From positions 1-47,674 of the forward strand of contig RBNJ01000044.1 in NCBI GenBank assembly GCA_003990765.1: a stretch of DNA of 47,674 bases. Direction: 5' to 3'. The translations under genes and the position numbers were made by a program. The notes beneath the pieces are model-generated. The model was not told the origin of the DNA, did no database searches, and saw only the letters and a program-made list of their open reading frames with translations. This document shows positions 1-29,832 of the stretch, piece by piece (the first letter of the stretch is position 1; the number at the start of each line of letters is the position of its first letter). This DNA is from Jimgerdemannia flammicorona. Its lineage: Eukaryota.

Positions 1-2164
1 CGAGGGCCTCTTCTAGACCTTCTAGCGCTCTGCCGTGTCCTCCGCAGTCATCGACAAGAACCGAGACTATGTAATTGTCTTGAAAAACTCGTTCCAAGTT
101 ACCATTCCGACGGATCATTGGCGATTTCAGAGAAGCTACCGGTAGGTATATACGCTTCCGATGGGTCAATTTCAGGAATTCATCGACTGGGCCAGTGATG
201 GTCGCGGTGCAGCAGGGAATCAAAAAGATTTTCCCAAGTGCTAGATCTCCGATGGAGCTGAGAGTATAGTAAAACGGCGATGTTTCAGTCCTCCCATCCA
301 AACTGGATTTTAACATATCTTGCAAGCCGTCGACGACCAAGATAACGGTAATCTCCCCCAAGTCTCGTTTCTCGTGTTTTGCGACTATTTTCAAAACGTC
401 CAGCGGTTCTGGTGGTACAAAGTTGCGTGCGATATACCCTATATCTTCGTTTGGCAGAAGCTGCAGAAGCATCCGATTGGCTATGGCTAGATACGGATTG
501 CTTTCATCATGTCTTATGCTGTTGCCGGTTTCGAAGCTAACATTGAATACCCAGGCGCCCGAAAGTCTTGTCCGCAGGGTCGATGCCAGTTCAGAATCGT
601 CGGACGAAAGGGATTCTACTGCTGTTTTGCGAAATTCATTGGCGTTTCGGGATTTCCCAGTGCCGGCTCCAGAGAGGAAAAGATAGGTCGGAATGGTAGA
701 TTTGTCAATATGTGAGTCGTTGAAATTGATGTAGTGTTCCTTGAGCGCCTTTCCCAATATTTCATGCATTTGTTGGTCCGGTTGATATTCCCAATGCACG
801 CCGGAAGATCGGAGAAGATCTTTTGGCTTCTGCATTGGTAAGCCTAGCCAGGCGATAAAAATCTGGTGAGACTCAACGTAACAACAGAGGTGTTCCGGGT
901 GGCGAGAATTGTTGACGACTTACCATTGGGGAATGCATCTTTGATTAACATTTTGGAGTATGCTATAAATGAGGGTTTCAATAGAAATGATAAAGAACCA
1001 GTGGAGAGGTCAAGAACCGAAGCGAAATAAATGCATACACAAAACCAGTATTGAATTATCAAAGCAAATTGCGAAACGAAAAGTTAGTATTGAAAAATAA
1101 AGGAGAATAGCAAAATGAAAGAACAACGAAATACATACCTTGGGGAGCTGCCGATGGTGACCAAGGGCATTTCACGAACAAGGCAAAAGTTATCACGAAA
1201 GAGTAATACATTAGTTTAGGAACGAGTCAAAATGTATGTGATAACATCATAGCGAGGAGTCGTACCTTGCGTAGGGGTATGGAATAAGAAAGGGAATGGA
1301 TCGATGTATGGAAACGAATGAGTAAGTGAGATATATATATGCCGGACGATATGAAAAAGAAAACGGATAGTGATTCCAAAGACAGAATTTACCAAGCAAT
1401 AAAAATGTCGAAATGAAATTCGTACCTTGGAAAATCGCAGGATATGGTTCGGGTAACGTTGAGCCGCACGTTAACGGGTATATGAATGGGAAATAAAGAT
1501 GAGAAGAAATAATGGCCGGATTTTAGACAAAAAGATATAATTATACTAATGGAGATGAAAACTATAGTACCACACAATATCGCAAAAATGCCACACTTCT
1601 GCGGATGAATTAGAGCAGCAACAATGCAATAATAATCAAGAGTACTAGCATACCTTCAATGATACGATCTCCAGTTTGAGGAAATGATGGTTCAGACTGG
1701 GCATCTGTGTGCGGTGGATTGAGCAGTTAGAAATGATGTCTAGTGGTAATTGAAATCATACGAGGCTCTCTACCCTATCCAAAATCAGAATAATACTCGT
1801 ATGTTTTCGATAGAGTCTGATACTTACTAGTGAACACCAAAGGCATCACAACAACAATGTGCAGGTGCTTTGATGCAGGGCCTTCAGGAAAGATCTCTTG
1901 AATTTCGTCAAAGGGTGACAGCTCGATTCCGTAGTCTTTTATATCAAAGTTGGAGGTGAGCGTGGCAAGGTCGTCCTTCGAAATGTTGACGCTCCAGAGT
2001 GTGAGCTCGTCAGCTTCAATGTTACCCAACTTTTGTGCCTTCTCTGCCTTCACCAACTTCTTAAGGTCGCCGACCGTGTCAGTTTTGGTAACTTGAACAG
2101 TGAAGGTACGGCGAGGGTCATCACCACAGACAAGACAGAAGAGCTTTATAGTAGTTGTTGTCAT
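1..2164 (-). CDS. Crinkler (CRN)-family protein: ubiquitin-like CRN N-terminal domain plus P-loop NTPase; 3' end lies beyond the window
   Basis: Exon 2164-1828 reads KLFCLVCGD...VGDLKKLVK...LTLWSV...HLHIVV, the CRN header. Frame-preserving phase-1 exons follow at 1704-1654 (51 nt), 1147-1139 (9 nt) and 962-924 (39 nt). Exon 843-1 is open and contains Walker A LSGAGTGKS and Walker B ILVVDG. Confidence 0.9.
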
Positions 2165-5274: not shown

Positions 5275-5619
5275 ATGGTCGACACTGTTACCCTCACTTG
5301 TTACATTCCCAGCACGCGGTCCATCTTTGACGTCATCATTGAGAAGGTGCACTCCGTTGCAAATCAAGCACCATCTATGGAAAAGGAAGGCATCGACATT
5401 CCCCGACACTGACCCAGATGATCTCCAAATCTGGCGTGTGAATATTTCTTGCGATTCTAGCAATGCCATCTTCGCCGCTCTTCAGCGCGAATACAGACCA
5501 GACATCAAGTTGCTTGGAGGTGAGGAATTACATCCAACGCAGAAATTATTGGAGGTGTTTTTCAATGTCCCCCAAGAAGGAAGACATATTCATGTGATTG
5601 TGGTGGCTCCTGGTACGTC

Positions 5620-5671
<52 letters not shown>

Positions 5672-7780
5672 CGTTACTTTATTAGATTGCGATTAGATTT
5701 GCTTTTTATTTCTACCTTCGCGTGTCCTTTCTTCGGGAACTCGATTAGCACTCTTATCTGTTTCTCTCTGTAACCGTGCTTTCGCTGCTTTGATTCTTCT
5801 TAACTATCAACACATCAAGGTACGTGCATACTCTAATTAGGGTTGGGAAGAAATGAACTGCAAAGTTGTGGTGGAGAGGATATACAAAGTCCATAGAACT
5901 AGGGTTTCCAAAGACTTTCGTATTCCGTGTCTATGTATGTACCTATTTTTACTTAAGCTTTATATTTTATTTCTTATATTTTATTTCACATTCCACATGG
6001 ACTCTGCCGTATTCGGTTTATTAGTGCTGTGGTACCGGTGGGAGAACCTAAAGGAACCTGGGACATTATCGACCAAATTGTTGACTAAATGCGTCAATTT
6101 GGGAGGCCTTGCCGTTGAACTTTCTCACAGTCACCCGGACGCCAAAAACCTTAGTCCATTTGGGATCTCCTTTGTTGAAAGTGATGATCTCTGCCGCACC
6201 AAAATCCTTCGCAGGGGCATTCCCCTTCGTGAGCTGAAAACATCTGACGAATCTCCTCTCATCATTCGTTTTCCATTCTCGGGGCGTTCCGGTGAGTCAA
6301 GTTATTTCTCTCTCTCTGATAGTGCCAGTAACCTAAACAACGTGGTTTTGATTTTTATATGCTTATGTAATTAAGCCATTGCTTATTCGACTTTGTCCTA
6401 CCTTGTAGTACGTGTGAACCTCAAATTTCTCAACGTTCCCGTTGAGATAATTCTTGTCCACTCTACCGGGACGTGGCATATGCTTTTGGATGGCACCAAG
6501 AAGAAATATCCGATGTTGGAATAGGCCGAGAATGAAATGTACTATGTTGACGCAAAGAAAAATATTATTGAAAATGATTTTACTTTCAACAACTATTTGA
6601 AGAATGCTCCCTTGAGCGATCAAGATGAAATTGTTCTCACTTTTATTGTTCGAATCAAAGGTGCCATTTTTTTTTCTTTTTTTTTCGAATTTGTAAAAAA
6701 TGTTGCTGTACTGTTATGGAATTTTTACACTTCTCTTACATACTATTTCTTAACGCTCTTCGGATAGGCAAGAGAGCTTACGGCGAGTGGGACGCAAACG
6801 ATGTGATCCGGGAGATCTTGCACCAACAATATACGAACATCACCTTATTGCCTGAATTCGACATAGGTAATGTTTTCAAGTCATGGTCTTCCCATTTTTA
6901 TGAATCAGCATTGTTACTGCGTTACTGCATTTTTATTAATTGATCGGGATCTTTTCTCGTAGAGGACGCCTTGGAGAACGAAGACGAGATCACCGACGAT
7001 GATAAGCGGACTTTCGTCACTGCCCTCAACGAAATTACAAAAGCATTCCATAATTTGGTAACCAGCAACGAAGCTACAGCGCGGAATTACATAAACCCTT
7101 TTATGATCAAGGCAGTTGCTATTGCCCAACGTAAACATCCTTCGGCCCGTCTCGCAGTAAAAGAGGACTTCGATGGAAGTCGCGGCTTTGGTCATCTAGA
7201 CTATGCGATATTTCTGGTCGCATTTGCGGTTCTTGTGACGGAAGCCAAAATGACCGAAGTTAATAAGGGAATAACACAAAATCTTGTACAACTTCATTCT
7301 GCGGCAGAGGTATGCAACATTGTTGCTTTTAGACAGGTTCTACTTTATTTCTCCCTATTCAAGGCTCATTAAGGCTTTTCAATTTAATTACATATTTCCC
7401 AGAATATTCGCAAGCGTAAGCGTAAAGAGTCACATCACCCCACCGATTATCTCGTCAATGTGTATGGGATAGTCACGACTGGATTGGAGTGGCGATTCAT
7501 ACACTGGTCGGACACACTGGAATCCCCGAAGGTGGTTATTTCCAAACCTTACAGGTGTACATTTAACCGAGAAGGCATGGAGGATGCCGAGAAGGTGCTC
7601 TCTATCATAATCCGCATTATTCATTCGCAAGCCATTGTCGTGGAATCGCAAATCGGAAGCAGCAAAGGAATATATGAAGAGGCAATGAAAAAAGACAATG
7701 TCCTAAGACCATCTCGACGCCAACGCTCTGACAAGGACGACGAGGAAATCGTAGAACCTGAACAAAGTCTTTTTGAGTGA
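5275..7780 (+). pseudogene. Crinkler (CRN)-family gene with PD-(D/E)xK restriction-endonuclease-like C-terminus; disrupted
   Basis: Exons 5275-5612, 6025-6291, 6409-6660, 6768-6866, 6963-7309, 7403-7780, all GT-AG. Header ...LQIWRV...HIHVIVVAP; C-terminus GHLDYAI...LVTEAK...QNLVQL...YGIVTTGLEWRF. One-base frameshift near 5358 and in-frame TAG at 6522-6524. Confidence 0.85.
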
Positions 7781-11143: not shown

Positions 11144-12128
11144 CTACAAATACGTTCGTATTCTGCGAAGCAACTGTAGGGCGGTTTGACTCGCTGATGG
11201 ATTTGGTGTGTGCGGTCGTGGGATGCCATTGACATCCAAAGTGATGGTAGGTATTGTATCGGGATCTTGTGAGGATTCGCCCTCCACGTGCGTGTGATCC
11301 TGCCTTGCGGCGGACTTGTGGTCGTCAGCGCGATTTGGATGGCTGACGTTGTGCCGAAGGTGTGAGCAATCCCATTTGCAAATAGGACAGAGAGTCGATT
11401 TGGTTGTAAGCCATAGATCTGCGGAAAGATGAACGATGTTTATTTCCGGTTTAGTACGGATTGAGAACCAGTTAATGAGCCGAAAAGTTTTGCTTACCAA
11501 TGCACTTGACATGGAACCCATGATCACATGGCAGCACGCGGATCCTTTCCGTTTCTTTTAAAATAGCTGGCGGCGATATGACTACTATTTGAGAGGGTTG
11601 AGGGTCGACAGTGGCCCCTTTCCCTTGTTCCTCATTCATATCTGAGCCAACACTAAAATCCTCCAAGCAAATGGCACAACCTTCACTCTTCACCACGTTG
11701 GGATCGTATATTGCAGCGGGGAAATGGTCCTGCAGAACCGAAATTTGCAGAACGACGATCTCTTGGAGCGGGAAACCACCTGGTCCCAAGTTGGAATTGA
11801 TCGGGGAAAAGATTCCATTTCGTATAGGTCGTCTTGAAGACCAGTTGAGCGGGTTGCAACCGTACATGCGGGAGAAGAAGCAGAATAGTAATACTTTGGT
11901 ACATATACGGGAGAAGCGGGCATGGACATGAAGATGAGGTTATCCGAAGGGAAGTAATTCACAGATGTCTGCACAGTTTCACCGAAAAAAAGATGGCATA
12001 CATGCTAGTACGAGCGGCAGAAACATTACCACCAAGGCTAATATCTGACCAGCTCCGAAGCTCGAAGCTGTGGCTAAAACATCATTGGTGGGCTGCGAAG
12101 AACTGGCAGCGGTAATGGACATTGACAT
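11144..12128 (-). CDS. Transmembrane RING-H2 E3 ubiquitin ligase-like gene; N-terminal frames disrupted, possibly a pseudogene
   Basis: CAICLEDF...RVLPCDHGFHVKCI, intron 11497-11419, then DLWLTTKSTLCPICK. The hydrophobic segment ILALVVMFLPLVLA lies upstream and is separated by a stop at 11979 and frame changes. Confidence 0.75.
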
Positions 12129-24196: not shown

Positions 24197-25087
24197 ATGG
24201 ATATGAGACCACCAGTATTCCACAGATATACCTCAGATGAATCAATCATCACCTTCATTGATCATTTCGAGCAGTATGCTGCTGTAAGGACCCTGACAGC
24301 AGCACAGCAAGTAGCCCTCATGTCCTTCAGCCTATGAGGTCCTGCCAGAGCAGCATTCACAGCTGCAACCCATGCAGGAAATGATGCTGATGCTATACTG
24401 ACAGCACAGAAGACCTAGCTCCATAATATATATTATATAGATAAGATCAAGCAAGCCCTGAAGGATCAGCTCAATACAATATGCCAAGGAATGAGTGAGG
24501 ATCCAAACACATTCTATACCAGAATTCGATATCAGATAATCCTTGCAGATTATGCTGCTACTATCCGGGATGAAGTAGCTGAAGCAATGTTCATGAAAGA
24601 AGTCCATCCAGAAATAGCTATGGCTATCCACTCATCACCAGTGATTCTGGATCTGCCACAAAAGGTCACCTATGCTCAGCGATACTGGATAGCCAGACAC
24701 CCACAAGACCATATGATAGAGAGAGTTACAGGAGTCAGAATCGAGATACCCAAGGCAACCAGTGTGATCCCTACCACAATGATCAATCAAAACACACCTC
24801 AGCCAAAAGCTATAGAGCAGCAAAAGAACAGTGACCCTATAGAGGAACTTGCCAAGGGGTTTGCCGAAATGACTGCCTATCTGGGAGATGTGGTAAAGGA
24901 AATCCAAGGAAGAGATCACCACCCTGTTCAGAAGTTTGCCACCACCTCAGACAAGAAGAAAGGTACCTGCTACAGCTGTGGAGAAGAAGGCTACTACTCC
25001 TATGAATACATGAGCGAAACCAAGTACAAGGCCCAACTAAGCAATACCACACAAAAACAAGGAGCAGGCCAATACAATTACCTTTGA
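24197..25087 (+). pseudogene. gag: gag
   Basis: MDMRPPVF...FIDHFEQYA; decayed zinc knuckle CYSCGEEGYYSYEY (CxxCxxxGHxxxxC); internal stops. Confidence 0.85.
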
Positions 25088-28000
25088 AGAAATCAAAGAA
25101 TCTGATGAAGAGGAATGAGAGGCCTATCCTGCTCAGACCACCAAGAAGGATGCTTGCAAAGAACCCTACAAGAGACCACCAGGAAGACCCAAGAAGAACC
25201 CAGTGAAAAAGCAGATAGAAACCACCACAGAAAGCCAAGCCGAAGAGATGGACCAAGATATCAAGCTGGAGCAAGCAGTTCAAGATATCATCCAAGGAAC
25301 TACTTCAGCCAGTGAAGGAGAAAAAGAAAAGAAGCTTCACAAGACCAAGACCTTCAAGTATGATATCTTCAAGGATCTCAGTCAACAAAAGGTCAATGCA
25401 ACCTTTGGTCAGCTTGCAGAAATCCCAACATTCAGACAGCAAATGAGGTTTGAACTTACCGAAACAACTAAGGAATAGGGATGGAAGATAACTGAGACCA
25501 ATAACATTCAAGAGGACTCAGGAGAAGAAAGTGAGGACAATTGCAAAACCTCTGCTTATGCAATATGCCAAATCGAAGATAGAATCTTTGAAGCCATCAT
25601 TGATATGGGAGCAGGAGGGTGTCTCCTCAGTAAGAAGGCAGCAGACCGCCTAGGTTGGGATGTGAAAGAAGCAACTAAGCTGGTATTTGTCACAGCTGAT
25701 AGCACAAGAGCCACACCTCTGGGAAAGATCCAAGATGTTCCTGTTAAGATTGGAGGAGCAACCATCCCAGTAGATGTAATTGTAACCAATGCCACCAACT
25801 ATGACATCCTCATCGGCAATCAATGGCTTCACAAAGCCAAGGCAGTAATCAATCTCAATGCTCAGAAGATACAGATCACCTACCAGAGACAGAAGATATG
25901 AATTCCCATCAATGTCAACAAAGAAGTCCTGCCTGAGATGGAGGAAGAAGAGAGCGAGCAAGAGGAAGCTTATATGGTGACTACTCCAAAGAAGAAGAAA
26001 GTTGAATGGATGAGCGAAGAAGAATGGTGCAAGAAGATCACAGAAGGTTATGCCCCACAAAGAGTCTGTCCTCATGGAATCAAGATGTACTGTATGGAGC
26101 ATATCAATAATTGCTACCAGTACACCATCAGAACCAAGAAGACCTACCAGGAAAGAAGGCAGAAAGCTCTCGACAAACAGATCAGGAAAGAAGAGAAGGA
26201 GGAAGATGACAAACCACCAGCCCTCCTGGAGGACAGTGATGATGAAGAAGAAATCAAGGTCAAGATTCGAAAGATCCACCCTGATACAGTCTTGCCAGAA
26301 TACAAGTCAGAAAATACAGCTGGAATGGACATCGCCACAGTAGTAGAGACTGTACTGGAACCCCAGACAACTACCGTACTCGCAACTGGACTGGAGATGA
26401 CCATCCCAAAGGATCATGTTGGGATTCTCAAGATAAGAAGCAGCCTGGCTAGAAGCGAAATCACAATTGAAGGAGGAGTCATCAATTCAGACTATACTGG
26501 AAAAATTCTACTCATTGCTAGGAACCACAATCCCTTAATCCCATTTCTAGTCAAGAAGAAGGACTGATTGGCACAAATATTGATCTTTCCAATCCTACAA
26601 CCAAAGATCATAGAAGTTAAGAAGCTGGAGGAAACAAAAAGAGGAAAGAAAGAATTTGGATCCACAGGAAGAGGAGTATTCGCCAGCACCAAGATCGCTG
26701 AACTCGAGCATAAGAAGGAGGAAAACACAAGCAAGCACAGCTACACCATCAGAAATGAATTTCCACTCAAGAAAGAACTCAAGGAAATACTCTACAAATT
26801 TGAAGATGTCCTTGCTACAGACTTCAAGGATACAAAGGAAAGACCCCACACTACTATTATGAAGTAGATACTGGAGACACTGAACCAATTTATCAGTAGG
26901 CAAGACCTGTCCCACCAGCCTACCAAGAATGGCTCAGAGAAGAAATCAAGCAGATGGAAGAAGCCAGCTTCATTAAAGAAGCAAGCAGCCCCTGGTCCTC
27001 ACCTGTTGTACTAGCCCTGAAAAAAGGCAGCAAGCCTGGAGAATTTGCCTCAAGACTCTGTGTTGACTACAGAAAGCTCAACATGGTTACCAAGAAGGAT
27101 CGCCAACCACTGCTCCTCATCAATGACATCCTCATAATACTGGGAGACAAAGCACAGTACTATAGCACTGGACTTATACTCAGGATTCTACCAAATCGGA
27201 CTCACAGACATGGCAAGTGAAAAATCAGCTTTCATCACCCCAGACAGAACCTACGTCTACCTATGAATGCCATTTGGAATGTGCAATACACTAGCAAGCT
27301 TTTAGCAAATGATGAACAAAATCTTCCACTATAACATGGGAAGATGGATGATGGTCTATGTTGATGATGTAATCATCTACAGCCAGACACCAGAAGAACA
27401 CCTACAGCATATCCAGTAGATAATGGAAAGACTGAGAAAGCATGGCCTATACATCAAGCCCAAAAAATGCAAATTTGCAGAAATTGAGATCTCCTATCTC
27501 GGCCACATCATCAACCAAGAAGGAACATACACAGACCCCCTCAAGATATAAGCAGTGGCAGCATACCCAAGACCCACCACTGTTACAGAAGCCCAAGCCT
27601 TCATGGGACTTGCCTCCTATTATTGCAGATTTATTAGAGGATTTTCTAATATTGTGGGACCAATCTACAAACTTAACAAGAAGGATACCAAGTTCCAGTG
27701 GACTGGCAGACAACAAAAAGCATTTGATGAACTCAAGGTCAGACTGACCCAGGCATCCATCCTCAGAAGACCTGACTGGACTCAAGAATTCATCTTATAG
27801 ACTGATATGTACAAGTGCACAAGGACTAGGAGTAGTTCTAGCTCAAAAGAAAGATAAAGTGGAGTATGTCATCACATACCTCAGCCACAGAACCCGAGGA
27901 GCTAAAAAAGAATATAAATCCTACAAGTTGGAATGCCTCACAGTCATCTGGGCCATAGAAATATTCCACTACTACTTGGCTGGAAGACACTTCACCATCC

Positions 28001-29381
28001 AAACAGACCACTCAGCTCTTACATATCTGGCTACTGACAACTGGACAACCCAAAGGAATCTATGCCAGATGGATAATGAAGTTGCAAGCTTATGATGTAA
28101 CCATTGTTCACTGCTCTGGAAGAACCAATGCCAATGCAGATGCCCTCTCACGGACACCCTGAACTACTTTCAACCAATAAATCAATCATGAATAAGGAGC
28201 TCTACTATGGAATCATCACATACCTGGGACAGAAATAGATGCCCCAACATCTGGAAGAATGGATATAAACAATTATCAACAGAACATGGAAACAATTTGA
28301 AACTGATGGAGAAACACTAAAGAAAGGAAAACTACTAGTTATACCAGAATACAAGAAGGAGCAAGTGATGAAATCAGTATACAAACTTGGCCATCTAGGA
28401 GGAACAAATATATATGACAAAGCAAGAAGAACAATATGGTGGCCAGGGATGGAGGAAGATATCAGACAATTCGCCAAGACCTGCGACAAATGCCAGAAAC
28501 AGAAATAAGACCAACGAAATCAAGCCCCAGGATTAGCACACATAGAACGAGTATCTTTCGCCCACATTACAATGGATGTAATCAGCCCTCTACCCTTGAC
28601 TTTTACTGGCAACTGATACATCATTGTCATCATAGACCTTTTTACAAAATAGATAGAAGCAGGACCTCTTATGGAAGCCAATGCACAGTCAATCGCTGAT
28701 TTCTTTCACAAAGAAATCATCTGTCAGTTCAAGACCCCAACACAAGTAACTACAGATAGAGGAATGGAATTTGTGAACCAGTTCTTTGAAGTTCTCTACA
28801 AGAAGTACAAGATCCAGCATATCTGGACCACAGCATATCATTCACAAGGAAATGGACAAGTAGAAAGGACCAACAAAACTCTCAAGAATATTATTGCCAA
28901 GATCTGCAATAACTATGAGAACTGGGATCACTATCTGCCAATAGCATTATCTGCTCTCCAGGATATCCGATCACAAAGTACCCACTTTACCCCTCGAGAA
29001 ATGCTGTTTGGAGAAGAATGTTCTCAGGGAACCCTATCTTCCAATAGAGATGCCATATGGAAACATGTGGACATGGAAATATGGAGACTACACCAAATCA
29101 GGAAGAAGGCTGAGGATTACATATCCAAGGTGCAGACACTACAATGGAGGAATGCGGAAAAGACCCACAAACTCTTGGAGATTATCAAGATAGGAGACAA
29201 AGTTCTGGTGTATCGGAATATGGTAGAAGCTTCATGGTCACGAAAACTGGAGCCCAAGTGGGAAGGACCTTACCTTGTGCAAGATATAAAAGGGACCACC
29301 TTTTGGCTACGAAAACCCTCAGGCATAATAATTCCCACTACCATTCACCGAAACTGACTCAAGAAATATCATGGCCAGTAA
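25083..29381 (+). pseudogene. pol: pol (protease, dUTPase, RT, RNase H, integrase; no chromodomain seen)
   Basis: AIIDMGAG and DILIGNQWL (protease); SPWSSPVV, RLCVDYRKLN, MPFG, VYVDD (RT); TDHSAL (RNase H); TDRGMEF, QGNGQVER, KLEPKWEGPY (integrase). Confidence 0.95.
26253..26669 (+). pseudogene. dut: Trimeric-type dUTPase domain within pol
   Basis: All five motifs recognisable: AGMDI, RSSLA, GGVINSDYTG, D*LAQ (CGA to TGA), RGKKEFGSTG. In frame with the protease. Confidence 0.93.
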
Positions 29382-29832
29382 CAAAAGTACTGCAATGGCA
29401 CTTAAGATCACTAGTGCTGCCCAAAGAGCCATTGAGAGACAATGGTGCATCACCAAGCCTCTGACCATAGAGGAGTCTTATGATAGTATCCAAAGCATCA
29501 TACAGACTCATCTCTCTCAAATCTCACACTTCAAGGCCTAACAGTATCAAAATGAATTCCAAGAGTACTTCAAACTTGGCCAAGTACTCAACTAAGACCC
29601 AGAAATGACCAAAGAAAATTGGATAGCAGAATGCCAGCTCTCCTATTCCCAGATCATCATTGCTAAGAGAATCCACAAGCTATTCCGAGAGGATAAACCA
29701 GCACTAGCCCACCTGCGAGGAGTGACTCCCTCAGATTTCAACTGAGTCAGGCGACACCATTGGGAAACAGTAATGCAACAAATCGCACAATATAAGACCA
29801 TACAGACCTTTGAAGCCTGGGAGTTTGAATAG
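29371..29832 (+). pseudogene. Accessory ORF3 (about 153 aa) between integrase and the 3' LTR
   Basis: ATG overlaps the end of pol. One frame, MASNKSTAMALK...QEYFKLGQVL...IAKRIHKLF...FEAWEFE*, with three stops each explicable by a single C-to-T change. Confidence 0.75.

Follow-up and report, generated by a model that had tools for sequence, protein, structure and literature searches.

The stretch of Jimgerdemannia flammicorona DNA analysed here, referred to as the window (contig RBNJ01000044.1, positions 1 to 47,674; 47,674 nt), begins with a minus-strand gene (1-2164) of the Crinkler (CRN) family, in which a train of short intron-like units occupies the linker between the header and the C-terminal module. 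Four such units make up the 691 nt that separate exon 2 (end 1654) from exon 3 (start 962). Within this gap a 9-nt micro-exon, CTCCCCAAG, is real and documented in the RNA of relatives, and at two further sites, 1426/1425 and 1266/1265, an AG directly abuts a GT. We regard these AG|GT pairs as probable relics of 9-nt micro-exons that have lost their acceptors. A further-reaching reading, to which we assign a probability of roughly 0.4, is that acceptor loss has turned micro-exons into zero-length exons, that the resulting 506-nt composite (1653-1148) is spliced out recursively or in any order as three units of 118-228 nt, and that an AAG|GTACGT in a neighbouring Crinkler gene is a second instance.

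Layout of the linker gap

Read on the minus strand, the first unit, U1 (1426-1653, 228 nt), runs from GTATGC through a TTAAC to TTTTCCAAG, and its last 120 nt, upstream of the first junction, are AG-free. It is followed by U2 (1266-1425, 160 nt, GTACGA...GCAAG), in which AG is confined to the last two bases, with 160 nt free of AG upstream of the second junction, and by U3 (1148-1265, 118 nt, GTACGA...CTAAT...GGCAG), where AG again is confined to the end. Then come the micro-exon CTCCCCAAG (1139-1147, 9 nt, phase 1-1, Ala-Pro-Gln), with CAG before and GTATGT after it, and U4 (963-1138, 176 nt, GTATGT...TATAG), also with AG only at its end. U4 is a genuine intron that is gone from every contig reaching exon 3. 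From 1653 to 963, AG occurs at 1646, 1600, 1597, 1563, 1547, 1427, 1267, 1149, 1140 and 964 and nowhere else. An earlier note on this DNA had pointed to the abutting sites as candidates for recursive splicing or zero-length exons, and upon re-reading the sequence we found its coordinates, letters and AG-free segments exact.

The two junctions read TTTTCCAAG|GTACG at 1426/1425 and TACGCAAG|GTACG at 1266/1265. Two 9-mers end at them, S1 (TTTTCCAAG, 1426-1434) and S2 (CTACGCAAG, 1266-1274), which would translate as Val-Phe-Gln and Ala-Thr-Gln. Each is followed by a GTACGA donor, at 1425 and 1265, and is preceded by GA (1436-1435) or CC (1276-1275), i.e. neither has an AG acceptor; 1147-1139 is bounded by both AG and GT. 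When all AG...GTRNG intervals in the gap no longer than 200 nt were listed as possible exons, 19 candidates resulted; six of them keep the frame, and solely 1147-1139 does so without a stop. The other 18 were rejected as frame-shifted or stop-containing. Since they lack an acceptor and the candidate list leaves 1147-1139 alone, the S1 and S2 9-mers cannot be exons in this allele.

Like ratchet points, both junctions consist of an acceptor AG and a donor GT abutting within an intron (AAG|GTACGA). To judge by the letters alone, a donor would be re-formed upon ligation, as exon 2 ends in ...GAAG and the relics in ...CAAG, giving AAG|GTACGA in each case. Upstream of the relic AGs, predicted branch sites of the yTnAy type are found at distances of 45 nt (TTAAC) and 19-61 nt, and each of U1, U2 and U3 has its own donor together with a branch-site-like motif 45-63 nt before its end.

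Splicing of the linker in close relatives

We aligned contigs of two small public runs from two studies, X1 and X2, to positions 1-2400 of the window. The run type is marked only as 'RNA? (a guess)', no run being listed as RNA for certain, and we read the contigs as RNA-derived because intron 1 (in X1) and intron 3 (in both) are missing exactly at their GT..AG borders. The gene is thus spliced as predicted, joint 842/923 being present in both and joint 1704/1828 in X1. Exon 4 is 99.3% (X1) and 97.6% (X2) identical to the contigs. These are assemblies that depict mature RNA, with rare forms dropped and no lariats, and some parts of the window, e.g. 1041-1120 and 1281-1360, have no contig cover. 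They do not decide between orthology and paralogy to the window gene, and some of them may be paralogs.

X1 record 4 contains exon 1, exon 2 and then CTCCCCAAGC, and X1 record 1 and X2 record 7 carry (G)CTCCCCA(AG) directly before exon 3. The sequence 1147-1139 is hence spliced into the relatives' contigs, and it is a multiple of three without a stop, as a micro-exon cassette should be. In X2 record 7, CCAAG stands ahead of CTCCCCAAG, which fits two consecutive micro-exons. A further X2 contig, coming from exon 1, reads ...ATCGTATCATTGAAG CTTTCCAAG TTTTCG..., i.e. a 9-mer follows right after the end of exon 2, and this CTTTCCAAG equals window 1434-1426 at eight of nine bases. For the other site, the unspliced X2 record 9 covers 1197-1269 with 5 of 73 letters differing, and further upstream it reads ...CATCATTAG CTCCC before the CAAG|GTACG at the homolog of the 1266 site. 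In the relative, this site thus has a canonical acceptor 9 nt upstream, TTAG|CTCCCCAAG|GTACG, with the same 9-mer as the real micro-exon. Finally, X2 record 8 is collinear with 1637-1426, continues with CTCCCCA(AG), seven letters thus standing between 1426 and 964, and then with 964-947. It joins 1426 to the micro-exon, and hence in a relative the donor at 1425 is active before U1 has been removed.

Several other features of the contigs are recorded here as observations in their own right. The contigs break exactly at the micro-exon, which would fit branching isoforms. From its lower identity and the 2-3x depth of its contigs, exon 1 may be a header exon common to several expressed paralogs. 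The X2 contig seems to join exon 1 to ATCGTATCATTGAAG, which would be an alternative acceptor (GAG in the window) at 1669-1670 (minus strand) whose use would leave 15 of the 51 nt of exon 2 and drop 12 residues without a change of frame; this depends on which 30 of 48 loose letters were shown. An X1 contig skips 110 nt in exon 1 (1953-2064) with GT..AG on the plus strand, a weak case with a shorter side of 26 letters that could reflect antisense splicing or a deletion in a paralog.

AG depletion in the gap

The gap holds 10 AG against 20.1 expected by composition. In 20,000 mononucleotide shuffles, the probability of 10 or fewer AG was 0.003, that of four AG-free runs of at least 116 nt was 5e-5, and that of two or more AGGTAYG was 2.5e-4. 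If AG-free runs on the minus strand are ranked by length across the whole 47.7-kb window, four of the top 12 fall within the gap. Inside the four AG-free stretches there are 14 GA and no AG, compared with AG/GA counts of 9/9 and 4/3 in introns 1 and 3 of the same gene, which are confirmed by RNA and served as controls. Likewise, AAGGTA[CT]G occurs eight times on both strands of the whole window, and four of these are found here, at 1656, 1428, 1268 and 1141 (minus strand). The depletion of AG in the gap is specific and no effect of composition.

A pyrimidine-rich intron that by chance contains two AGGT would be the simplest account, and the sense strand of the gap is indeed 62-69% pyrimidine. 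It is nonetheless hardly credible in view of the 14 GA against no AG, the two lowest shuffle probabilities, the packing of half of the window's AAGGTAYG into about 520 nt, and the relatives' RNA-derived contigs.

A candidate site in a second Crinkler gene

The window contains a second Crinkler-headed gene on the plus strand (5277-7780), whose header exon ends at 5612 (HIHVIVVAP, phase 1) and whose next coding exon starts at 6025. The same junction is annotated in a Jimgerdemannia flammicorona protein to which an exon of this gene is 91% identical. The linker intron between the header exon and the next coding exon (5613-6024, 412 nt) is in phase 1, as are the linker introns of the first gene (924-1704, minus strand), and it uses a GTACG-type donor, the junction being as in the annotated ortholog. 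CATCAAG|GTACGT lies at 5819/5820, in the exact middle of this intron (207+205 nt), with a CTTAACT 16 nt ahead of it, and an exon ending at this place could not keep the frame. This mid-intron AAG|GTACGT is a second candidate site. An uninterrupted run of about 50 T (5622-5671) stands at the start of the same intron.

Origin of the abutting sites

The AG|GT pairs at 1426/1425 and 1266/1265 are probably relics of acceptor-less 9-nt micro-exons, because relatives show a 9-nt exon or an intact acceptor where the window has GA and CC. The train would have been built around 9-nt micro-exons of phase 1-1, each adding an x-x-Gln tripeptide. At S1 and S2 the acceptor AG would then have been lost, which would leave behind the terminal AAG and the intact donor GTACGA as abutting AG|GT. 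The message expected from the window allele would be exon 2 | CTCCCCAAG | exon 3. Linkers of homologous proteins are short and variable, and gain or loss of a tripeptide should therefore be tolerable at this place.

The earlier note had also considered relics of duplicated micro-exons. The relics are borne out by the relatives' 9-nt exon and TTAG acceptor; a duplication is not, as the bodies of the units are no more alike than shuffled sequences. Among the findings that would refute its proposal, it had further listed ordinary micro-exons in paralogs with acceptors mutated in the window, and the relatives' contigs do present such micro-exons. Sites S1 and S3 are alike only at the junction and about 14 nt downstream (19 nt, 84%), and in a multiple alignment of five junction regions conservation was limited to the junction itself.

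Alternatively, the AG|GT sites could have arisen as ratchet points that subdivide a long intron, without ever having been micro-exons. The site in the second Crinkler gene would fit such an origin, given its position in mid-intron, the CTTAACT 16 nt upstream and the impossibility of a frame-keeping exon. In the gap, however, the counterpart of each site in relatives belongs to a 9-nt exon or still has its acceptor, and the relic 9-mers still are in-frame tripeptides ending in Gln, which makes purpose-evolved ratchet points very improbable.

Removal of the 506-nt composite

How the composite 1653-1148 leaves the transcript is a separate question. Removal unit by unit, in any order and with the relics serving as zero-length exons, is the route we lean to, at a chance of even or slightly less. 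It is favoured because each unit has a branch-like motif, an AG-free tract running up to the relic AAG and a donor of a type in use in this organism, GTACG-type donors also occurring at the linker intron of the second Crinkler gene. Moreover, since AAG closes exon 2 as well as the two relics, each ligation would re-form a donor AAG|GTACGA. After loss of an acceptor AG, the next AG downstream normally becomes the 3' splice site in the second catalytic step. Here, the next AG would be the last two bases of the former micro-exon, and a zero-length exon would result. Retention of U1 brings an in-frame stop near 1610. The internal donors at 1425 and 1265, which are nearer to 1148 than is 1653, would otherwise yield U1-retaining RNA with this stop.

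The relics may also be inert. In that case the AG|GT pairs would be dead remnants that have not decayed yet, and the composite would be removed in one step as a 506-nt intron with its donor at 1653 and its branch point in U3. The contig of the closest relative runs from exon 2 directly into CTCCCCAAG, AAG is a poor type of acceptor, and a relative at about 97% identity keeps the acceptors, so that the loss may be recent and the donors and AG-free tracts possibly inherited. Introns of this size also appear manageable, since in X2 record 8 the piece spliced out between 1425 and the single 9-mer, past a skipped micro-exon, measures 278 nt or more. However, consensus GTACGA donors 118 and 278 nt upstream of the acceptor 1148 would compete with a donor 506 nt away, and their use yields U1-retaining RNA with the stop near 1610 unless the relic AGs act as acceptors. 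As, in addition, U1 and U2 keep intact branch-like motifs and AG-free tracts, we hold one-step removal, the main alternative, to be the less likely route. The same donors at 1425 and 1265 might instead serve as alternative 5' splice sites, with the upstream part retained, to give stop-containing RNAs that tune expression. X2 record 8 could be such a form, as 1637-1426 is retained and the downstream part is spliced, at a depth of 29 against 128 for the main C-terminal contig, and the stop near 1610 upon U1 retention agrees with it. Yet this record can equally well be a normal splicing intermediate, and it leaves the window sequence upstream of 1637 and may stem from a paralog. We consider such a regulatory use improbable.

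Several observations weigh against our own reading of micro-exon loss followed by unit-wise removal. The contigs come from relatives and not from the strain of the window, exon 1 identity being 94-96%, and N-terminal contigs have 2-3x the depth of C-terminal ones, so some may be paralogs. X1 record 3 and X2 record 8 depart from the window upstream of 1637 for an identical 71 letters, and a 16-nt piece of these had no match in the window at up to three mismatches. The letters following CTTTCCAAG in the X2 contig (TTTTCG...) likewise had no match that could be placed. Joints 1654/1425 and 1654/1265 are not among the contig joints, where rare forms are dropped and absence thus is not demonstrable. 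The relic acceptors would moreover be AAG, a weak type of 3' splice site. As to tandem duplication, none of the 15 pairwise local alignments of the four units and the control introns fell below p=0.05 when compared with 200 shuffles. Apart from these points, the 71 foreign letters upstream of 1637 hint that the relatives have either a paralogous locus or inserted sequence here.

The gene, its relatives and the rest of the window

Exon 1 of the first gene (1828-2164, minus strand) starts with the ATG at 2164 and encodes the Crinkler N-terminal, ubiquitin-like header domain, with a Pfam match to PF20147 at residues 6-106 (E=1.2e-23). The predicted protein opens with MTTTTIKLF..., i.e. straight into the header. 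The exon ends in phase 1 with ...HLHIVVVMPLVFT, its 3' end being set by the X1 joint 1704/1828, and it closes on HLHIVVVMP, a counterpart of the HVLxxP motif of CRN headers after which the variable C-module follows. With a Crinkler header, an HVLxxP-like motif and a variable C-module, the protein has the modular layout of the CRN family. Intron 1 (1705-1827, 123 nt, GTAAGT...CTAAC...CAG) is ordinary, and the X1 joint across it is annotated 'skips 123, CT..AC'. Exon 2 (1654-1704, 51 nt, phase 1-1) ends in ATTGAAG, and in X1 record 4 it follows exon 1 and precedes the letters of the micro-exon. Exon 3 (924-962, 39 nt, phase 1-1, ...KMLIKDAFPNG) is matched in pieces 923-964 by X1 and X2; in homologs the conserved C-module opens with ..KKIT-DAFPxG-LPY, so the start of the module falls in this exon. 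All linker exons of the gene (51, 9 and 39 nt) are thus symmetric, phase 1-1. Intron 3 (844-923, 80 nt, GTAAGT...CTCAC...CTAG) is removed in both runs by joint 842/923, annotated 'skips 80, CT..AC (cut +1)'. Exon 4 (1-843) continues beyond the edge of the window and encodes a C-terminal module with a P-loop (GAGTGKS).

A protein search found 129 relatives of the C-module at E<=0.001, with a best identity of 55%, several of which are named crinkler family. They occur in Glomeromycotina, Mortierellomycotina and other Mucoromycota, behind Crinkler, SAM or other heads. Exon 1 had no relative in a search among longer proteins, and an exhaustive HMMER scan with it gave 2044 relatives of at most 52% identity. 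The homologous proteins compared have no x-x-Gln repeats in their linkers. One of the 150 listed exon 1 relatives has a run of two [AVG]xQ, which lies inside the header domain and outside the linker. Many database models of the C-module (P0002-P0004, P0011, P0026 and others) have no DAFPxG piece or begin just after it, and many Crinkler-header models stop after the header, which suggests that gene prediction in these fungi often overlooks small exons in the linker.

In metagenomes, a scan with a single protein gave no match, and one with an alignment of the C-module family gave 65 loci of 31-62% identity. We set aside 16 of these with less than 500 nt upstream. Among the remaining 49, none has an AG|GTRNG after at least 60 nt without AG, the longest such run being 33 nt, and AAGGTAYG is present at most once per locus. 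Since no locus of the 49 shows such a junction, the train is not a family-wide trait of C-module proteins.

Elsewhere in the window, A-rich open frames at about 24400-29400 (plus strand) match a dUTPase (PF00692, E=8.5e-15) and, weakly and under its cut-off, an integrase core (PF00665, E=1.1e-5), and are probably a retrotransposon remnant. An open frame at 11472-11939 (minus strand) encodes a RING-type zinc finger (PF17123, E=3.8e-10).

Discussion

The case described here is a lineage-specific variant of three known phenomena, namely micro-exons, exon intronisation and fungal recursive splicing. Ratchet points of Drosophila lie in introns of 11-133 kb, which they divide into segments of 2.6-64 kb, and the founding example, an Ubx intron, contains the micro-exons mI and mII and a zero-nucleotide ratchet point (10.1101/006163). 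As in Ubx, the end of the upstream exon would re-form a donor in the window gene, and micro-exons and zero-length exons would share one intron. In contrast to Drosophila, the units measure only 118-228 nt, the acceptor is AAG instead of a strong TT..CAG (10.1101/006163), and the sites are known from sequence. The earlier note had placed AG|GT ratchet points in very long animal introns, a background that has to be amended in view of Cryptococcus neoformans BOT1, where a 375-nt intron is split into 210+165 nt by a zero-nucleotide exon and spliced recursively (10.1101/224170). BOT1 resembles the present case in that it is a short fungal intron with a zero-nucleotide exon and similar unit sizes. 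It differs in having a single pivot and in being demonstrated by spliceosome-bound intermediates, junctions and branches, and a micro-exon ancestry of this pivot is not described in the accessible text of that work (10.1101/224170).

Intronisation of a small exon has been found for rtnA in Eurotiales and Onygenales, where an exon of 15-24 nt beside a stwintron became intronic after its internal splice sites were lost (PMC6616335). Some species include the exon, others can skip it, and elsewhere it has become intron, and the complex intervening sequence is removed in several reactions (PMC6616335). Common to rtnA and the window gene is a small exon flanked by phase-1 introns, within a region that is disordered and little conserved. 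In the nested rtnA stwintron, however, an internal intron splits the donor (PMC6616335), whereas the units here adjoin as complete GT...AG introns and the acceptor alone is lost. A stwintron was hence rejected as a description of the gap, because the units abut, each is a complete GTAYG...AG and no splice motif is split.

Runs of tiny symmetric exons whose inclusion or skipping leaves the frame unbroken, in a gene family tied to host interaction, recall the micro-exon genes (MEGs) of Schistosoma, whose coding sequence consists mostly of micro-exons separated by long introns (10.1101/2023.06.21.545858). Unlike in MEGs, micro-exons here are restricted to the inter-domain linker and the introns are short. 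With an exon 1 of 337 nt and an exon 4 of at least 843 nt, and small exons in the linker only, the gene does not qualify as a schistosome-type micro-exon gene. CRN proteins are described as modular (PMC6131194): an HVLxxP-like motif, which in the window gene reads HIVVVMP, closes the header, and behind it stands a swappable C-module. In the window gene, their junction consists of phase-1 introns and symmetric small exons; the accessible part of that source mentions no train of introns and micro-exons for CRN genes (PMC6131194). In human exons, distant branch points accompanied by AG exclusion zones have been described (PMC1431707). For filamentous fungi, functional micro-exons had not been described before according to a 2024 abstract (PMC11121469), and published micro-exon trains in Endogonales did not turn up in our literature searches, none of which was aimed at them.

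For annotation, the locus combines a 9-nt exon with two decoy-like donors in a Crinkler linker, where gene finders will fail. It also displays birth and death of micro-exons among strains that are 97-99% identical, and offers a concrete and testable route by which loss of an acceptor turns a micro-exon into a zero-length exon. Phase-1 introns and symmetric exons would permit the exchange of modules and linker tripeptides without loss of frame. If the relics are indeed spliced recursively, they would document a direct evolutionary path from a micro-exon to a ratchet point, and an organism with intron definition would routinely resort to recursive splicing for long introns where a modular gene family swaps its domains.

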